Of a stretch of DNA of 64,000 nucleotides, positions 26,619-32,655 are shown in pieces (the first letter of the stretch is position 1; each line of letters starts with the position of its first letter). The translations under genes and the position numbers were made by a program. The stretch is taken from the NCBI GenBank assembly GCA_934168245.1, contig CAKPMY010000001.1:201428-265427 (forward strand). Reading direction: 5' to 3'. The stretch is from an uncultured Bacilli bacterium (GTDB taxonomy: Bacteria > Bacillota_I > Bacilli_A > RF39 > UBA660). Below the pieces are notes generated by a model. That model saw only the letters and a list, made by a program, of their open reading frames with translations, was not told the DNA's origin and did no database searches.

Positions 26619-26789
26619 TCAATAATAAACAATCATCGCCGAAAAACAAAACACCTGTTCTTCACTAAAAATACCAATACTAACCTGATACTTAATATCA
26701 ACAACTTCCCCTTCTAAATCCCCCAAAAAACTATTAATATCATTTTCTAAGTCCTTCTCATCTTCATCATCAAATATTTTAACTTTCAT
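26619..26789 (-). CDS. cse60: Sporulation protein Cse60-like (56 aa; below the ORF-track cutoff)
   Basis: Hand translation: MKVKIFDDEDEKDLENDINSFLGDLEGEVVDIKYQVSIGIFSEEQVFCFSAMIVYY. GGTGAT RBS lies 4 nt upstream. The pattern (VKIFDeedEKDLE...IDIKYQV...CFSAlI.Y) matches my memory of the Cse60/YteV family. Confidence 0.6.
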   Translation of the reverse strand: MKVKIFDDEDEKDLENDINSFLGDLEGEVVDIKYQVSIGIFSEEQVFCFSAMIVYY

Positions 26790-26844: not shown

Positions 26845-27756
26845 CTATTCACTTTCTTTTTTTAAATCACTACTCTTACTCTTAACTTTATATCGTTTAC
26901 CCTCACTTTTCTGCCTAACTCTCTCATTAATGTCCAATTCCACAATAGAATCACATATCTTATAACGATAAAAGTTCTTAATATCTGTATAATCTCCCTC
27001 GTTATTGGCAAGATTCATAGCCTTATGATATTCTCCTCTTTCTCTTTCTAAAATATATATAGGAGGTAATCCAACATCTTCTAATAACTTATTTGTAAAT
27101 GCTCTAATAGTTCTACCATTTCCATCTTTAAAAGGATGTACTTTTATTAATCGACAGTTTATTTCTACACAACAGTCTAAATATGCTAGTAACTGCGAAG
27201 AGTCATTTGCACTTCTAATCTCTGGAGCAATACTACGTAAATACTGCACATCTTCATCTATTTCATTTAATCGATGACGAATCTCTCTCCACTCACACAA
27301 CTCAGTCCCTGTTCCCGGTAAATAAACATCTTCATTTCTAATAGTACCGGCATATTCTGGAAAAGGTGAAAATGAAAATAACATTCTATGCAAATCAAGT
27401 AACGTATAAACATCAAATCTATATTCAATATCATCAGAATGAACGTACTCATACATCTTTTCTAATCCTTTAACCTCAGAATCAATATGAACATCTTCTA
27501 ATCTACTCTCATTACGAATATATCTCTTTACAAAAGCCTTTTTTAATCTATCAAAAACAATCTCATCAGGATTCAAGCCATAATACATTTTTATTAACTT
27601 TGTAGGTACTGAAATATCCGTTCCATAAAGTTTCTTTCTCTCTTTTCTCCACTTATAACCTAAAAAGCTCTCTCTAATTAAAAATTCCGGATCAAGTCCA
27701 AGATCCACTAAACGTCTAATAAAAATTTCTTTTTCCTGTTCACTCAAATTTCTCAT
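26845..27756 (-). CDS. Fic-family protein (probable AMPylase / NMP transferase)
   Basis: Canonical Fic motif HPFKDGNGRTIR. ATG at 27756. Its own promoter is TTTACT-17-TATAAT with a TG extension (about 27777-27808). Confidence 0.85.
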   Translation of the reverse strand: MRNLSEQEKEIFIRRLVDLGLDPEFLIRESFLGYKWRKERKKLYGTDISVPTKLIKMYYGLNPDEIVFDRLKKAFVKRYIRNESRLEDVHIDSEVKGLEKMYEYVHSDDIEYRFDVYTLLDLHRMLFSFSPFPEYAGTIRNEDVYLPGTGTELCEWREIRHRLNEIDEDVQYLRSIAPEIRSANDSSQLLAYLDCCVEINCRLIKVHPFKDGNGRTIRAFTNKLLEDVGLPPIYILERERGEYHKAMNLANNEGDYTDIKNFYRYKICDSIVELDINERVRQKSEGKRYKVKSKSSDLKKESE

Positions 27757-27794
27757 CCCCAATCTGAAATATGCTTATTATAACACCATAAAAA

Positions 27795-27830
27795 TAAAAA
27801 GTAAACAAAAAGGACTTATCCCTAAGTCCA
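27795..27830 (-). terminator. Intrinsic terminator after the AAA-like gene pair
   Basis: On the minus strand: GGACTTA-GGGA-TAAGTCC followed by TTTTTGTTT. It separates the pair from fic. Confidence 0.65.
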
Positions 27831-27862
27831 TATACTTATCTAATTTAAAAAACGTACTTGTT

Positions 27863-28264
27863 CTAAATATGTACTAACAAAGAATACACTTCTTCACTTA
27901 TTTTATTCTTTTTTAAATTTGAACAAGTCACAATAATCAAACAGTCATTAGGTAATTCAAATGTACTAATTTTCTTATATTTAAGTAGTTCGATAAACTT
28001 TTTCTGTTCCTCTAAACCTACATTATTTATATTATCTATAATCAAAATAGCCGAATCGCCCGTATCTTTTTCTAGTAGCTCACTATACCAAGTAGGTGGA
28101 CAAAACTTAGTACCTTCATAATGTCCATTCAATTCTTTTTTATCAATATTTGCATTAAGTACAACTGCATCACCAAAGAAGTTAGCCTGAATACCTTCGA
28201 TCAACAAAGGTGAAATAGAAGCCTCTAAATAAGATTTTAAGAGAGTTAACTTCTCTGTATTCAT
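27863..28264 (-). CDS. Stand-alone degenerate AAA+-like (MoxR/McrB AAA_5-like) module, 133 aa
   Basis: Paralogous to the middle of the upstream 631-aa protein (PPTWY; AILIIDNINNVGLEEQKKFIELL; LPNDCLIIVTC). There is no GxxGxGK[ST], and the Walker B position reads IIDN. GGAGG RBS. ATGA overlap with the upstream stop. Confidence 0.5.
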   Translation of the reverse strand: MNTEKLTLLKSYLEASISPLLIEGIQANFFGDAVVLNANIDKKELNGHYEGTKFCPPTWYSELLEKDTGDSAILIIDNINNVGLEEQKKFIELLKYKKISTFELPNDCLIIVTCSNLKKNKISEEVYSLLVHI

Positions 28265-30153
28265 CTATGTTTTCCTCCAACATCCTGTTGAAGAGTATCA
28301 TTTATTTTAGCATCAGCCAATTTTTCTAATCTTTTTTCATCTCCATGAGCCCATATTGCTTCAAATGTTGCTTCTGGTTCCGGCCCAACTTTCTTCATAA
28401 AATCACGAACTGTCGCGAAGTTTTCTTCATCTACTGTCGCTAATGAAGCCGCAGTAGCAAACTTTTTCGAATCAGTCATCTCTAAGTCATCACTAGAGTA
28501 ATTACCCATAACTACATCATCAACAGTAATTAATGGTTGTTGAACAAATGCTTTAAAGTCCGTTGTTAAATCTTCGCCAATTAAAGATTTAAGCATATCA
28601 GGTTGATTAGTTTTAGTAAGTACTTTAGAAGCAAATTCCCACTTTCTAGGATTAGCATTTGGCTTTTCACCTGTGTAAGGAGTATTTAAAACATCCTCTC
28701 CAGAACAAGATTTATAAGTAACATAAGAAACAATAGCAGGATGTATATCATTTGTAGTTGCCCATTTTAACCAATGATCAGTATCAGTTTCAATATTAAC
28801 ATGTGCAAAGCCATCGTATAAAGGATCATCAAGTCCACCTGCCGCAACAAATCTTGCATTAGCAGGTAATTTCCATTTACTATTTACTTCGCCCTCTAAC
28901 ATCACATCAATAGCCATCTCTTGAACTTCCTTTGAAGCAGCAGTAAGTCCATCCAAATATACAACATGAAGCCTATCCGGATCATTTTCACATTTTTGTA
29001 AAACATTAGTATACCAAGTTGGCGGTATATCATTTTCTTCACCAACAAGTATTCCAGCCGGTTTACCACCAAAACTCTCAAGATTAGCATTTGGCATATA
29101 AACAATTTCACAATCAGGATCAAATTGCTTTACACGTGCAGCCTTTTCTTCGATTGGATCTCCATGTAAAAATACTGGAACACCACTTTCAATAGCCCCT
29201 CTAATCATATCTTCTTTAGAAGTATTTGAAAAATCAAAGTTATATGGATTTACATTTTTTATTTTTTGTGCATTTTCACTCTTATCTTGAATATTTTTTT
29301 CTACCTCTTGCTTTTCAGTAACTTTTTCATAAGTTCTAGGAGCAATAATTTCTCTGGCGAAAGTTCTATTCATAAATTTACCAATTGTTGTATCTTCAAA
29401 CTGTGTACGATAGTTAAGTTCTGCCCCATTTTCATCATTGAACGGAATACCGGCAAGTACTATTTTTTTAGAAAGAACAACATTGTTTTTCTTATCTACT
29501 AACCAAACAATTGGTTCTACTTTAACCCAATAGTATTGTCCTTTTTTTACATCTCTACCATCAGATAATTTATAACCATAAACGGTAGAATCAGCGGCAA
29601 CAACTCTAACGTATGGCTCACCATTATACTCATACTCAACAAGTTGCCTTGGTATAAAATCATCATCTGAAGCAAAACTTGCTGAATCAGCAGTATAGGA
29701 TCTACCTGTCTCTACTAATTCTCCATTATTAAATGCTGTCTCTAAAGTTAAAGCCTCTTCTTCTCCAATCACAGTTTGTGGTAATTCACCATAAGTAGCC
29801 TCATTTAATCCACCTACTGGAGCTGTAACTCTAAAGTCATTCACATTAGAAGAGTAAGATGTAGCAGGTCTAATACCAATACCTTGACGAGCCGTTGGAT
29901 TCTGCCAATATCCATTTCCTTGAGCATTAATAACCCAAACATTACCATTACGATTACCGTCAGTATAATAGTGTCCAGAACGAATTGTACTATTACTAAA
30001 TAAGCGATTACTCTCAGTTCTACCACCATATCCGCCTAATAAAATCGCAAAATCTGTAATCTCTGCTGCCGCACCATATTTATTCTTCTTTATTAACTCA
30101 GCCTTACGTACATCTACACTTGTTTCATAGTTATCTAAAAATCTAAATTCCAT
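28261..30153 (-). CDS. 631-aa fusion protein: unknown N-terminal ~300 aa plus a degenerate AAA+-like C-terminal half
   Basis: The start is ATG 30153 (MEFRFLDNY), preceded by GGTGAT. No signal peptide. The N-terminus has GIGIRPA and EPIVWLVDKKNNVVLSKKIVL elements. The C-terminal half has VPVFLHGDPIEEKA (degenerate P-loop), PPTWY, HVVYLDG (degenerate Walker B) and LPANARFVAAG. Confidence 0.5.
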   Translation of the reverse strand: MEFRFLDNYETSVDVRKAELIKKNKYGAAAEITDFAILLGGYGGRTESNRLFSNSTIRSGHYYTDGNRNGNVWVINAQGNGYWQNPTARQGIGIRPATSYSSNVNDFRVTAPVGGLNEATYGELPQTVIGEEEALTLETAFNNGELVETGRSYTADSASFASDDDFIPRQLVEYEYNGEPYVRVVAADSTVYGYKLSDGRDVKKGQYYWVKVEPIVWLVDKKNNVVLSKKIVLAGIPFNDENGAELNYRTQFEDTTIGKFMNRTFAREIIAPRTYEKVTEKQEVEKNIQDKSENAQKIKNVNPYNFDFSNTSKEDMIRGAIESGVPVFLHGDPIEEKAARVKQFDPDCEIVYMPNANLESFGGKPAGILVGEENDIPPTWYTNVLQKCENDPDRLHVVYLDGLTAASKEVQEMAIDVMLEGEVNSKWKLPANARFVAAGGLDDPLYDGFAHVNIETDTDHWLKWATTNDIHPAIVSYVTYKSCSGEDVLNTPYTGEKPNANPRKWEFASKVLTKTNQPDMLKSLIGEDLTTDFKAFVQQPLITVDDVVMGNYSSDDLEMTDSKKFATAASLATVDEENFATVRDFMKKVGPEPEATFEAIWAHGDEKRLEKLADAKINDTLQQDVGGKHR

Positions 30154-30258
30154 ATATATCACCAACCTTATCATATCATAAATAAGAAATAATTTATACA
30201 AGTTTTTGCTAAATAAAATGTTAAAAAAAGTCCAATAGAAAAATAGAGAATCACTTCT

Positions 30259-32655
30259 CTATTTAACAACTATATTAACTATTTTTCCCTTAATAACGAT
30301 AACTTTAACTATCTCTTTACCTTCAGTATGTCTCTTAACATTCTCTTCATTTAAAGCCTTTTCTTTAATAGTATCTTCATTCTCATTAACATTAATTGTA
30401 ATAGTACCTCTAACTTTACCATTAACTTGAACAGCAATTTCCTTAGTCTCATCTATAGTCTTAGCCTCATCATATTTAGGCCAACTATTCTTACAAATTG
30501 GACTATTACCAATTCCCTCATTTAACTCCTCAGTAATATGTGGAGCAAATGGATATAATAATGTTAATAATACTGTATAATCATCTTTACTAATAGATTC
30601 TACTGCATAATATTCATTAACTAATTTCATTAATTCAGATATAGCCGTATTATATTTTAAAGTTTCAATATCATCAGATACTTTCTTAATAGTTTTATTT
30701 ATAATACCTTCAAAACTACTAGTATATCCTTTATTATCATTTAATCTTTCACTTAATCTATAAACTCTATCTAAGAAGCGACTAATTCCTTTAACACCTT
30801 GCTCATTCCATGGAGCCTCTAATCCATAATCACCCATAAATAATACATAAGTTCTTAAAGTATCAGCACCATACTCATCTACTATCGTATTAGGATCAAT
30901 TGTATTACCACGGGATTTACTCATCTTCTCTCCATCTGGTCCTAAAATAAGTCCTTGTGCAGTTCTTCTCATATAAGGTTCACTAGTAGGAACTAATCCT
31001 AAATCATATAAGAAATGATACCAGAATCTAGAGTAAATTACGTGTCTAGTAACATGCTCCATACCACCATTATACCAATCAACTGGCATCCAATAATTAA
31101 GTTTTTCACGTGAAGCAAACTCTTTGTCATTATGTGGATCAATATATCTTAAGAAATACCAACTAGATCCCGCCCATTGAGGCATAGTATCTGTCTCTCT
31201 CTTTGCATCCCTTCCACACTTAGGACATTTACAATTAACGAAACTCTCTATTTTAGCAAGTGGACTTTCTCCATCTGTACCAACTTCAAAATTAGTAACC
31301 TCAGGTAATCTTAAAGGTAACTCTTCATATGGAACAGCAACATCTCCACAATGTTCACAATGAATTATTGGAATTGGTTCTCCCCAATATCTTTGTCTAT
31401 TAAATGCCCAATCCTTCATCTTGTATTGAACAGCTTTTTCTCCAACACCATTTTCTTTTAAGTATTCAATTACCTTTTCAATAGCATCTTTTTTATTTAA
31501 TCCATCTAAGAATCCTGAATTAATATGAACTCCATCACCTGTATAAGCCTCTTTCTCAATATCTCCACCTTCAATAACTGGAATTATATCAATACCAAAC
31601 TTAGTCGCAAATTCATAGTCTCTTGTATCATGAGCTGGTACAGCCATAATTGCCCCAGTACCATAACCCATCATTACATAATCTGCAATATAGATAGGAA
31701 TTTCTGCTCCATTAACTGGATTAATCGCAACTAAACCATCAATTCTAACACCAGTCTTATCTTTAGCAAGTTGAACACGTTCAAACTCAGTCTTCTTCTT
31801 AGCCTCTTCTCTATAAGCCATAATCTCATCTATATTTTTAACCATATCTTTATGATTATCAATAATATGATGTTCTGGAGCAACAACCATAAAAGTAGCT
31901 CCAAATAATGTATCAGGACGAGTCGTATAAACTTTCAATACTTCATCCAAGTCTTTTACTTTAAAATCAACATAAGCACCAGTAGATTTACCAATCCAAT
32001 TCTCTTGTTGTAGTTTAATATTTGGTAAATAATCAACTTCTTTTAATCCTTCAAGTAACTTATCAGCATACTCTGTAATTCTTAAATACCAAACATCTTT
32101 TTCTTTTTGAATAACTTGTGAATGACAAATATCACATTTACCACCTTGTGAATCTTCATTAGCCAAAACCACTCTACAACTAGGACAATAATTAACAAAT
32201 GTCTTATCTCTAAAAGCAAGCCCTTTCTCAAACATCTTTAAAAATATCCATTGAGTCCATTTATAATAATTCTCATCTGTTGTATCGATAACTCTATCCC
32301 AATCAAATGAAAAACCTACTTTTTTTAATTGTCCAGCAAATATCTCAATATTTCTATCTGTCAAAACTCTAGGATGAATATTTTGCTTTATAGCAGAATT
32401 CTCTGTAGGAAGACCAAATGCATCATATCCAATTGGAAATAATACATTATATCCTTCCATTCTTCTCTTTCTCGCAACTACTTCCAATCCAGAATAAGCC
32501 TTAATATGTCCTAAATGCATACCAACTCCAGACGGATATGGAAACTCTACTAAAGCATAAAACTTAGGCTTACTATAATCATCTAATGCCTTAAAGCACT
32601 TATTATCTTCCCAATACTTTTGCCATTTCTTCTCTATTTCTTTAAAATTATACAT
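30259..32655 (-). CDS. leuS: Leucyl-tRNA synthetase
   Basis: HLGH (HIGH motif), the CP1 editing domain, KMSKS, 798 aa. Confidence 0.97.
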   Translation of the reverse strand: MYNFKEIEKKWQKYWEDNKCFKALDDYSKPKFYALVEFPYPSGVGMHLGHIKAYSGLEVVARKRRMEGYNVLFPIGYDAFGLPTENSAIKQNIHPRVLTDRNIEIFAGQLKKVGFSFDWDRVIDTTDENYYKWTQWIFLKMFEKGLAFRDKTFVNYCPSCRVVLANEDSQGGKCDICHSQVIQKEKDVWYLRITEYADKLLEGLKEVDYLPNIKLQQENWIGKSTGAYVDFKVKDLDEVLKVYTTRPDTLFGATFMVVAPEHHIIDNHKDMVKNIDEIMAYREEAKKKTEFERVQLAKDKTGVRIDGLVAINPVNGAEIPIYIADYVMMGYGTGAIMAVPAHDTRDYEFATKFGIDIIPVIEGGDIEKEAYTGDGVHINSGFLDGLNKKDAIEKVIEYLKENGVGEKAVQYKMKDWAFNRQRYWGEPIPIIHCEHCGDVAVPYEELPLRLPEVTNFEVGTDGESPLAKIESFVNCKCPKCGRDAKRETDTMPQWAGSSWYFLRYIDPHNDKEFASREKLNYWMPVDWYNGGMEHVTRHVIYSRFWYHFLYDLGLVPTSEPYMRRTAQGLILGPDGEKMSKSRGNTIDPNTIVDEYGADTLRTYVLFMGDYGLEAPWNEQGVKGISRFLDRVYRLSERLNDNKGYTSSFEGIINKTIKKVSDDIETLKYNTAISELMKLVNEYYAVESISKDDYTVLLTLLYPFAPHITEELNEGIGNSPICKNSWPKYDEAKTIDETKEIAVQVNGKVRGTITINVNENEDTIKEKALNEENVKRHTEGKEIVKVIVIKGKIVNIVVK

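Follow-up and report, generated by a model that had tools for sequence, protein, structure and literature searches.

Two overlapping genes on the minus strand of an uncultured Bacilli bacterium (GCA_934168245.1, contig CAKPMY010000001.1) raise the question of what a pair of AAA+-related proteins with degenerate nucleotide-binding motifs may be doing, and with which partners. Both lie in the window analysed here, a 64-kb stretch of that contig, where the large gene (28261-30153, minus strand) encodes 630 amino acids (aa) and the small gene (27863-28264, minus strand) encodes 133 aa. An earlier, sequence-only reading of this DNA, which had the small protein right and the large one at 631 aa because the stop codon was counted, took the two genes for a dedicated two-protein module without an assignable family and linked it to an adjacent Fic gene. 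The results below lead to a different view. We consider it likely that the pair corresponds to the first two genes of a conserved three-gene operon, and that it is a derivative lacking the vWA partner and dead as an ATPase, probably kept as an ATP-independent binding or scaffold module, with the Fic gene as a mere neighbour.

A conserved three-gene operon in uncultured gut Bacilli

In related genomes the pair does not stand alone. Two related loci (L001 and L003) show a 133-aa gene that overlaps the large gene by 4 nt, as in the window, and after it a gene of 427-511 aa with a DUF2201_N+DUF2201 architecture (L001:10355-11890 and L003:10373-11656). DUF2201_N is a putative zincin metallopeptidase, whose HExxH motif is present, and DUF2201 is a vWA-like domain in which a DTSGS adhesion site dependent on metal ions (MIDAS, with an intact DxSxS motif) is present. 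The HExxH and vWA domains of this partner are separated by a long low-complexity linker, rich in Q, N, S and K and highly variable in length, that recalls the disordered linker of NorD remodelled by NorQ.

A scan of one genome per GTDB species identified relatives in 300 species genomes, nearly all of them metagenome-assembled genomes (MAGs) of uncultured gut 'Bacilli', 'Tenericutes' or 'Mollicutes', for example Coprobacillus sp. CAG:605 and Clostridium sp. CAG:417. When 78 GTDB loci were collected by a tblastn census, the order large gene, small gene, DUF2201 gene was observed nearly always, wherever downstream DNA was present. Exceptions are few: the small gene is lacking in two Oscillospiraceae-labelled MAGs, the large gene is present in extra copies at some loci, and at L022 nothing matches after the large gene in ~1 kb of downstream DNA. 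Even a remote member of the small family (L087) is still found between the C-terminus of a large protein and a DUF2201_N gene. The large and small genes are therefore co-conserved in related genomes, a check that the sequence-only reading had proposed; the conserved unit nevertheless consists of three genes rather than two, and it is the third that is missing in the window. A second large-family gene or a complete tandem system occurs at L026, L052, L060/L077, L069 and L071, with ~1.9 kb from the first large gene to the small gene.

Because the genes flanking the trio differ between genomes (acetyltransferase, glyS, leuS and others), we regard it as a self-contained operon. A viral origin of the family was considered and rejected: IMG/VR holds just one related locus, and the family is accordingly treated as chromosomal. 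PADLOC searches on the intact relatives and on their phage homologues returned noise-level matches only, with no match for any of the three proteins, and thus no evidence of membership in a listed defence system. In the literature, we found no paper on a bacterial trio with a DUF6273 fusion and a mini-AAA subunit.

The large protein carries a phage-type MoxR-like AAA+ module

The large protein is organised into a DUF6273-like N-domain, a linker, a MoxR-like AAA+ core and a C-terminal helical domain; it combines an N-domain assigned as a divergent DUF6273 with an AAA+ module that is MoxR-like and of phage type. The profile phrog_1297 'ATPase' is matched over its positions 15-316 of 356 by residues 314-589 (E 5.3e-26, 92.5 bits), which refutes the notion that no family could be assigned. 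More than 1000 homologues of the large protein were found, and a tblastn search with the intact relative P0019 retrieved 542 phage records, annotated as ATPase, AAA ATPase or MoxR-like ATPase. The AAA+ alpha/beta core, in which the catalytic residues are lost, spans aa 301-455 (28789-29253, minus strand), and is followed by a helical region (aa 456-630; 28264-28788, minus strand) comprising the AAA+ lid and a family-specific helical domain with an invariant PNAxPRKWE motif.

The AlphaFold2 (AF2) model of the large protein has a mean predicted local distance difference test score (pLDDT) of 74.6 and a predicted TM-score (pTM) of 0.50, with pLDDT 80-94 in its C-terminal half. Its best match in the PDB by Foldseek is NorQ, from NorQ-NorD complexes, followed by sigma54 activators, RNF213 and MCM (probability 1.0 for NorQ, sigma54-activator and RNF213 structures, ~0.5-0.9 for MCM; E down to 3e-5). 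In a viral structure library the same model resembles phage ATPases of 350-400 aa (E down to 1e-12), and the matches include a RaK2 'gp24-like' protein, the MoxR-type ORF618 of Acidianus two-tailed virus (ATV) and 'COG0714 MoxR-like' proteins. The best structural matches of the large and the small protein all belong to clades with a helix-2 (H2) insert. The models show short strands between beta2 and alpha2 and after alpha3, judged without residue-by-residue superposition and clearest in the small protein (E48-50/E53-55), which may represent the helix-2 insert and the pre-sensor-1 beta-hairpin (clade 6/7 insertions).

Neither window protein matches Pfam, NCBIfam, PADLOC or PDB sequences, the last of these in both single-sequence and profile searches. 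The window large protein has no Pfam match at E<=1 and so does not reach the gathering score of AAA_5 (PF07728). Its relatives also stay below that threshold (18.6 bits against a cutoff of 22 for P0019), and 4 of the 33 proteins in our alignment of large proteins (A1; the window copy and 32 others) match at E<=0.01; two phage homologues pass it, with 25.6 and 24.0 bits. An McrBC-type assignment was rejected, since the relatives' partner is a DUF2201_N+DUF2201 peptidase-vWA protein and no McrB or McrC match was obtained in Pfam, NCBIfam or PADLOC.

Loss of the third gene and of the catalytic site in the window copy

No DUF2201 or vWA homologue was found anywhere in the 64-kb window, and the large protein encoded there has lost all four catalytic motifs of its AAA+ core. 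On the minus strand, the Walker A motif (29140-29163, aa 331-338) reads GDPIEEKA against a family consensus of GRSSEGKS, with the private changes G336E and S338A, and the Walker B motif (28945-28968, aa 396-403) reads HVVYLDGL (VVYLDGLT) against HIIFFDEL (IIFFDELT), with the private change E402G. The other two fall within the segment running from sensor 1 to the Arg finger (28804-28854, minus strand, aa 434-450; columns 1101-1200 of A1), where sensor 1 reads AAGG against AAGN (N440G) and the Arg finger DGF against NRF (R448G). Ten residues (DLNDSLAANQ) are deleted directly after sensor 1, and a ~16-aa insertion in the C-terminal domain, present in most relatives, is absent.

These losses are specific to one lineage. 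In a motif census, carried out as an anchored-motif search of 176 family sequences in which most rows flagged 'odd' are regex misses and not true losses, all four motifs are lost only in the window protein and its 99%-identical cluster P0001. Elsewhere, the only real motif changes amount to one conservative substitution each in P0004 (EE) and L050 (NE).

The window protein also shows 21 private changes at columns of A1 where the other 32 sequences agree, against 7-8 in the next most divergent, similarly distant members; 17 of the 21 fall within residues 316-448 of the AAA core, and 3 of the 45 invariant columns of the C-terminal domain are changed. Its AAA core is 55% identical to those of its relatives (64% for the next-lowest member), which are 85% identical among themselves. 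The enrichment of private changes in the core is significant (Fisher p 5.5e-4). However, P0019, which is equally distant and catalytically intact, displays a similar trend when the window is left out (16/76, p 0.075); enrichment alone is thus no proof, and the argument rests on which residues changed.

In NorQ, the loop following sensor 1 contacts the C-terminus of the vWA partner (PMC13036017), and by analogy the deletion of this loop would fit the loss of the partner. From the loss of the third gene, the lost motifs and the post-sensor-1 deletion together, we conclude that the window large protein is a vWA-less, ATPase-dead derivative; the window copy is a lineage-specific, decayed remnant of the conserved trio.

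A small paralogue without a nucleotide site

The small protein has 303 homologues, nearly all of 133 aa, and an exhaustive profile search gathered 255 clusters, almost all of 120-140 aa. Its AF2 model is confident (pLDDT 89.3, pTM 0.83) and matches NorQ best in Foldseek (TMq 0.66, probability 1.0), together with sigma54 activators, MuB, dynein and Lon. As the models of both proteins thus lead to NorQ with probability 1.0, the MoxR-type AAA+ fold suspected from the sequence is borne out. The small protein consists of the AAA+ alpha/beta core alone, lacking both a lid and a nucleotide site: only nine residues separate strand 1 from strand 2, the usual place of the P-loop and helix 1. A P-loop is absent from every family member examined. 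Conserved features of the family are the P-x-W and EQxKF motifs and the position of the gene between the large gene and the DUF2201 gene. The window copy keeps all family-invariant residues, with no private change at invariant columns, and follows the large gene as in the rest of the family, but the DUF2201 gene downstream is missing.

The two proteins are paralogous, as a hand alignment had already proposed essentially correctly. BLASTP aligns the window proteins at 28% identity over 54 aa around PPTWY (E 2e-4), and hhalign comparison of A1 with an alignment of 48 small proteins (A2) gives a probability of 90.4% (E 1.4e-6). The probability rises to 95.9% (E 6.6e-9) when A2 is replaced by A3, a broader alignment of 63 cluster representatives of the small protein (mean column identity 33%). 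Both profile comparisons cover 96 columns and pair small residues 38-133 with large residues 354-452, a stretch that begins at the putative helix-2 insert, includes Walker B and sensor 1 and reaches the fifth strand. A hairpin motif of the putative helix-2 insert, LNG...PPxWY, is common to the small paralogue and the motor. Against phrog_1297 the small protein reaches only E 0.051.

Degenerate Walker motifs had been noted in both proteins and are confirmed, as GDPIEEKA and VVYLDG in the large one, and as a missing P-loop and the sequence LIIDNIN at the Walker B position in the small one. Judging from these residues, neither window protein would be expected to bind or hydrolyse nucleotide canonically. 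The broader claim of dead NTPases thus holds for the window, but not as a feature of the large family, in which only the window and P0001 among the 176 sequences lack all motifs.

In two MAGs labelled Oscillospiraceae/Ruminococcaceae (L033 and L034), the DUF2201 gene comes immediately after the large gene and the small gene is lacking, so that the mini-AAA subunit is not universal.

A probable, divergent lectin-like domain at the N-terminus

The N-terminal beta-rich domain of the large protein (aa 1-265; 29359-30153, minus strand) is assigned as a divergent DUF6273, C-type-lectin-like domain by homology to the DUF6273 regions of relatives. The window domain itself has no Pfam match to DUF6273 (PF19789); the region is beta-rich in the model, and the structural match lists of the full-length protein are dominated by the AAA+ part. 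Among the A1 proteins, Pfam detects DUF6273 in the N-domain of 5/33 and Fib_succ_major in 1/33. The N-domain of P0002 scores 27.3 bits for DUF6273 (cutoff 23.5), and a precomputed PF19789 annotation is carried by 8 of the 120 homologues listed. The resemblance to domains of secreted Firmicutes proteins remarked on earlier is therefore real but indirect, as it holds for 5 of 33 relatives and not for the window protein.

A C-type-lectin-like fold has been reported for DUF6273 (PMC10743442), which occurs in phage receptor-binding proteins diversified by diversity-generating retroelements (DGRs) and also forms the N-terminal domain of an IgA protease from the gut (PMC10743442, PMC12402451). Read by eye from the sequence without a predictor, the large protein does not begin with a hydrophobic signal peptide, which suggests that the domain is cytoplasmic here.

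The N-domain is the most variable part of the family, with a pairwise identity of 49-58% against 85% for the motor. Its ratio of non-synonymous to synonymous substitution rates (dN/dS) is 0.23 between the window and a stand-alone copy at locus L061, to be compared with 0.24 for MurJ, 0.11 for Fic and 0.06 for leuS. This value indicates that the recognition domain is still under purifying selection, even when alone. Divergence of the window N-domain does not exceed that seen in the N-domain of P0019, which is catalytically intact. Relatives of ~900 aa with two lectin-like domains also exist (P0002, P0003, P0004, P0020, P0049, P0064, P0069 and P0100).

History of the locus

Locus L061 belongs to the closest GTDB genome, which is syntenic with the window and whose leuS product is 97.6% identical at the aa level. 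There (L061:6001-6876) the large gene is reduced to a 291-aa open reading frame (ORF) consisting of the N-domain only (71% identical), followed directly by Fic (81%), with no AAA half, no small gene and no DUF2201 gene. This stand-alone ORF and its dN/dS of 0.23 suggest that the lectin-like domain serves some function independently. The synonymous divergence (dS) of leuS between the window and L061 is 0.20, against 0.6-1.2 for neighbouring genes, suggesting strong codon constraint or a separate recombination history of leuS.

Contigs L083, L084 and L089 come from a second lineage, whose flanks are 80-96% identical to those of the window. Window positions ~27500-30250 are 99-100% identical to all three loci, with sharp edges near the leuS stop codon and inside Fic, so that the near-identical tract takes in the pair and the first ~260 nt of Fic. 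The identity of the block, set against the diverged flanks, and its sharp edges indicate that ~2.5 kb holding exactly the pair moved recently between diverged lineages by recombination. Codon differences within the block number 4 synonymous and 7 non-synonymous in the large gene, against 0 and 1 in the small one, counts too few to decide on selection. A metagenome scan for intermediate forms recovered none, only the same strain (L090) and the second lineage with the identical pair (L089).

Gene arrangement and neighbours

The pair lies between leuS (30259-32655, minus strand), upstream of the large gene, and the Fic gene (26845-27762, minus strand; Pfam Fic 43.6 bits, cutoff 24), as the sequence-only reading had placed it. 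The TGA of the large gene (28261-28263) overlaps the ATG of the small gene (28262-28264) in the ATGA at 28261-28264 that this reading had also noticed, and a GGAGG (28274-28278) stands 9 nt upstream of that ATG; read from the sequence, positions 28261-28278 of the minus strand thus form a translational coupling site. A strong ribosome-binding site had been claimed for each gene: the small gene has it, whereas the ATG of the large gene is preceded by a weaker GGTGA.

A terminator-like hairpin with a T-run (27812-27829, minus strand), inside the interval 27795-27830 previously proposed as a common terminator, closes the two-gene operon. Beyond it comes a promoter-like site (27777-27805, minus strand; TTTACT-17-TATAAT, extended TG) that precedes Fic and lies outside the module. 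These two signals argue that the pair is its own transcription unit and that Fic is a separate one. The Fic protein, whose HPFKDGNGR motif is canonical, is matched in PADLOC by the candidate-defence family PDC-S04 (E 7e-17) and weakly by VbhT and SoFic models. After Fic comes a Cse60-family gene (26619-26789, minus strand; Pfam E 4e-21). With this sporulation-protein gene, and with a gene for a small acid-soluble spore protein (SASP) in a related MAG (L001:3984-4190), genes associated with sporulation are present in lineages that bear the labels uncultured Bacilli, Tenericutes or Mollicutes.

The GC content over the pair (bin 28001-30000) is 34.5%, against 26-31% in the flanking 2-kb bins, which fits a different history of the block. 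GC skew is negative in 31 of the 32 2-kb bins of the window and cumulative skew falls almost monotonically; between 24 and 36 kb, the minus strand carries all long ORFs except one. The window is probably contained in a single replichore and read against the leading strand.

Relationship to known systems

The closest known systems are the phage pair of a MoxR ATPase and a metallopeptidase-vWA protein and, structurally, NorQ-NorD. The former was described in group 2.2 jumbo phages by Iyer et al. (2021), who proposed a chaperone/co-chaperone role in virion assembly (PMC7824862); the opinion that the locus fits no described system is not supported. The likeness to the phage pair (jumbo group 2.2 and N4-like phages, with an N4 gp24-like ATPase) extends over the AAA+ and C-terminal regions, by sequence and by predicted fold, and the relatives' third gene shares the DUF2201_N+DUF2201 architecture of the phage partner. 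The layout of the bacterial trio is reproduced in Acinetobacter phage nACB1, an N4-like phage, where an ATPase that passes the Pfam AAA_5 cutoff is followed first by a 137-aa ORF and next by a DUF2201_N+DUF2201 gene. This 137-aa ORF was tried as a homologue of the small protein and gave an hhalign probability of 0.2% with both profiles, so that homology is rejected or undetectable.

In contrast to the phage pair, the bacterial large proteins carry an extra DUF6273-like N-domain of ~300 aa, the bacterial middle gene is an AAA+ paralogue and the family is chromosomal; the window copy differs further in having neither a vWA gene nor catalytic motifs.

With NorQ-NorD and CbbQ-CbbO the family shares an AAA_5-type core with a putative helix-2 insert and, in the relatives, an adjacent MIDAS vWA partner with a long disordered linker. 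Sequence identity is however 10-14% only, no respiratory or Rubisco gene context is seen, the relatives' partner has a zincin peptidase in place of the NorD N-domain, and the bacterial trio adds a lectin-like domain and a mini-AAA subunit.

The vWA-MoxR ternary conflict systems (Kaur et al., 2020; PMC7159879) are similar in that three components are organised around MoxR and vWA, and in their recognition domain of C-type-lectin fold (FGS-like), their peptidase effectors and their inactive enzyme paralogues. They differ in the third component, which in the trio is a mini-AAA protein and not VMAP or iSTAND, in the lectin-like domain, which in the trio is on the ATPase and not on the vWA protein, and in their hosts, which for the trio are small-genome gut Bacilli and not multicellular bacteria. 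The bpMoxR type of ATPase was matched only by phage homologues, at E 0.004-0.06, which is no meaningful match, and PADLOC gave no match either. Finally, the DUF6273 matches of the relatives' N-domain connect it to the tentaclins, DGR-diversified phage receptor-binding proteins, and to the IgA protease ThomasA (PMC10743442, PMC12402451). Unlike in these, the N-domain is here cytoplasmic and fused to an AAA+ motor, and no reverse transcriptase or template repeat was seen nearby. The intact trio is therefore an undescribed bacterial variant of the MoxR-vWA chaperone type.

A proposed function and its alternatives

By analogy with NorQ-NorD and CbbQ-CbbO, the ATPase of the intact system would form a MoxR-type ring. 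This ring would grip the vWA-peptidase via its pore, its helix-2 insert and its post-sensor-1 loop, partner contacts being documented in NorQD structures (PMC13036017, PMC9976466), and ATP hydrolysis would remodel the partner's long low-complexity linker, the vWA-peptidase or a MIDAS-bound target. The variable lectin-like domains may choose the target, and the small paralogue would most plausibly join or cap the ring as a non-catalytic subunit. In the window, the pair would most likely survive as an ATP-independent binding or scaffold module and not as a motor. We favour such a residual role because both ORFs are intact, the small protein is fully conserved, the N-domain is constrained and the block was recently transferred.

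Several points weigh against this proposal. Only 64 kb were inspected, and the rest of the genome could hold a gene for a vWA partner. Since K337 and D401 remain, the large protein may still bind nucleotide weakly. The large-protein model is of only moderate quality (pLDDT 74.6, pTM 0.50), and the family assignment relies on PHROG, homologues and predicted structure, with no match in Pfam, NCBIfam, PADLOC or PDB sequences. The differences counted in the large gene (4 synonymous, 7 non-synonymous) are compatible with relaxed selection, and with the AAA half and small gene already deleted in L061, the pair may be decaying.

The last two points bear on the alternative that survives best, namely that the pair is a non-functional relic: once the vWA-peptidase was lost, the ATPase and its small partner would have become useless and would be decaying neutrally, not yet deleted. 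The loss of all four catalytic motifs and of the post-sensor-1 loop, the clean deletion in L061, the most diverged AAA core of the family (55% against 64% for the next-lowest member) and the excess of non-synonymous over synonymous recent differences (7 against 4) would all be expected of such a relic. On the other hand, both ORFs, 763 codons in total, are uninterrupted in a genome of 29% GC; the small protein has no private change at invariant columns, and the C-terminal domain only 3 of 45. If the vWA loss is common to L061, it would predate a divergence of dS ~0.6-1.2, over which neutral ORFs would presumably have gained stop codons. Furthermore, the 2.5-kb block is 99-100% identical between lineages whose flanks are about 88% (87-90%) identical. 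We therefore regard outright junk as possible but doubtful, and as less likely than a residual ATP-independent role.

The trio as a whole could also serve small-genome gut Bacilli in conflict or surveillance, as a system not recognised before. An invader or a damaged-self molecule would then be recognised by the lectin-like domains, which evolve fast and are duplicated in some members, and the motor would release or activate the vWA-tethered zincin peptidase; the window pair would have been derived from this as a binder or decoy standing on its own, and recombination would recently have swept it between species-level lineages. Taken in full, from sensing through peptidase release to the window decoy, this scenario appears improbable to us.

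Still less credit can be given to a motor that remains active through K337, D401 and non-canonical residues, with a vWA partner whose gene lies elsewhere in the genome. Of the Walker motifs, the Lys of A and the Asp of B are indeed kept, and the inspected 64 kb leave room for a distant partner gene. However, the P-loop Gly and Ser/Thr, the catalytic Glu, the sensor-1 Asn and the trans-acting Arg, essentially universal elsewhere in the family, are all lost, and the loop that contacts the vWA partner in NorQ is deleted (PMC13036017), which makes this explanation very unlikely.

The least probable is the view of the sequence-only reading that the pair is a pseudo-ATPase sensor or adaptor controlling or working with the adjacent Fic toxin: Fic adjoins it in the window, in L083/L084/L089 and in L061, matches a candidate-defence family and has its 5' end in the recombination tract, but it is absent from 77 of the 78 related loci (the exception being the sister species L061), L061 keeps it although both the AAA half and the small gene are gone, in the window a terminator and a promoter-like site of its own set it apart from the small gene, and the family's conserved partner is the vWA-peptidase. 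There is no general link between the pair and Fic, which is only a neighbour. The reading that we prefer thus remains that of a vWA-less, ATPase-dead derivative, most likely retained as a binding or scaffold module.

Implications

These results remove a tempting but unsupported link between the pair and a Fic toxin, and place the pair in a widespread, classifiable but unstudied operon of uncultured gut Bacilli. This operon extends the MoxR-vWA chaperone type in two respects, a cytoplasmic, putatively C-type-lectin-like recognition domain fused to the motor and a dedicated AAA+-core subunit without a nucleotide site.

The window lineage moreover provides a natural experiment: with the motor's partner lost, the catalytic site and the partner-contact loop go first, while the recognition domain and the small subunit stay constrained, and a sister species keeps the recognition domain only. 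This order of loss suggests which parts are able to act alone, and the lineage offers testable constructs for the function of MoxR-vWA-peptidase systems, those of phages included.

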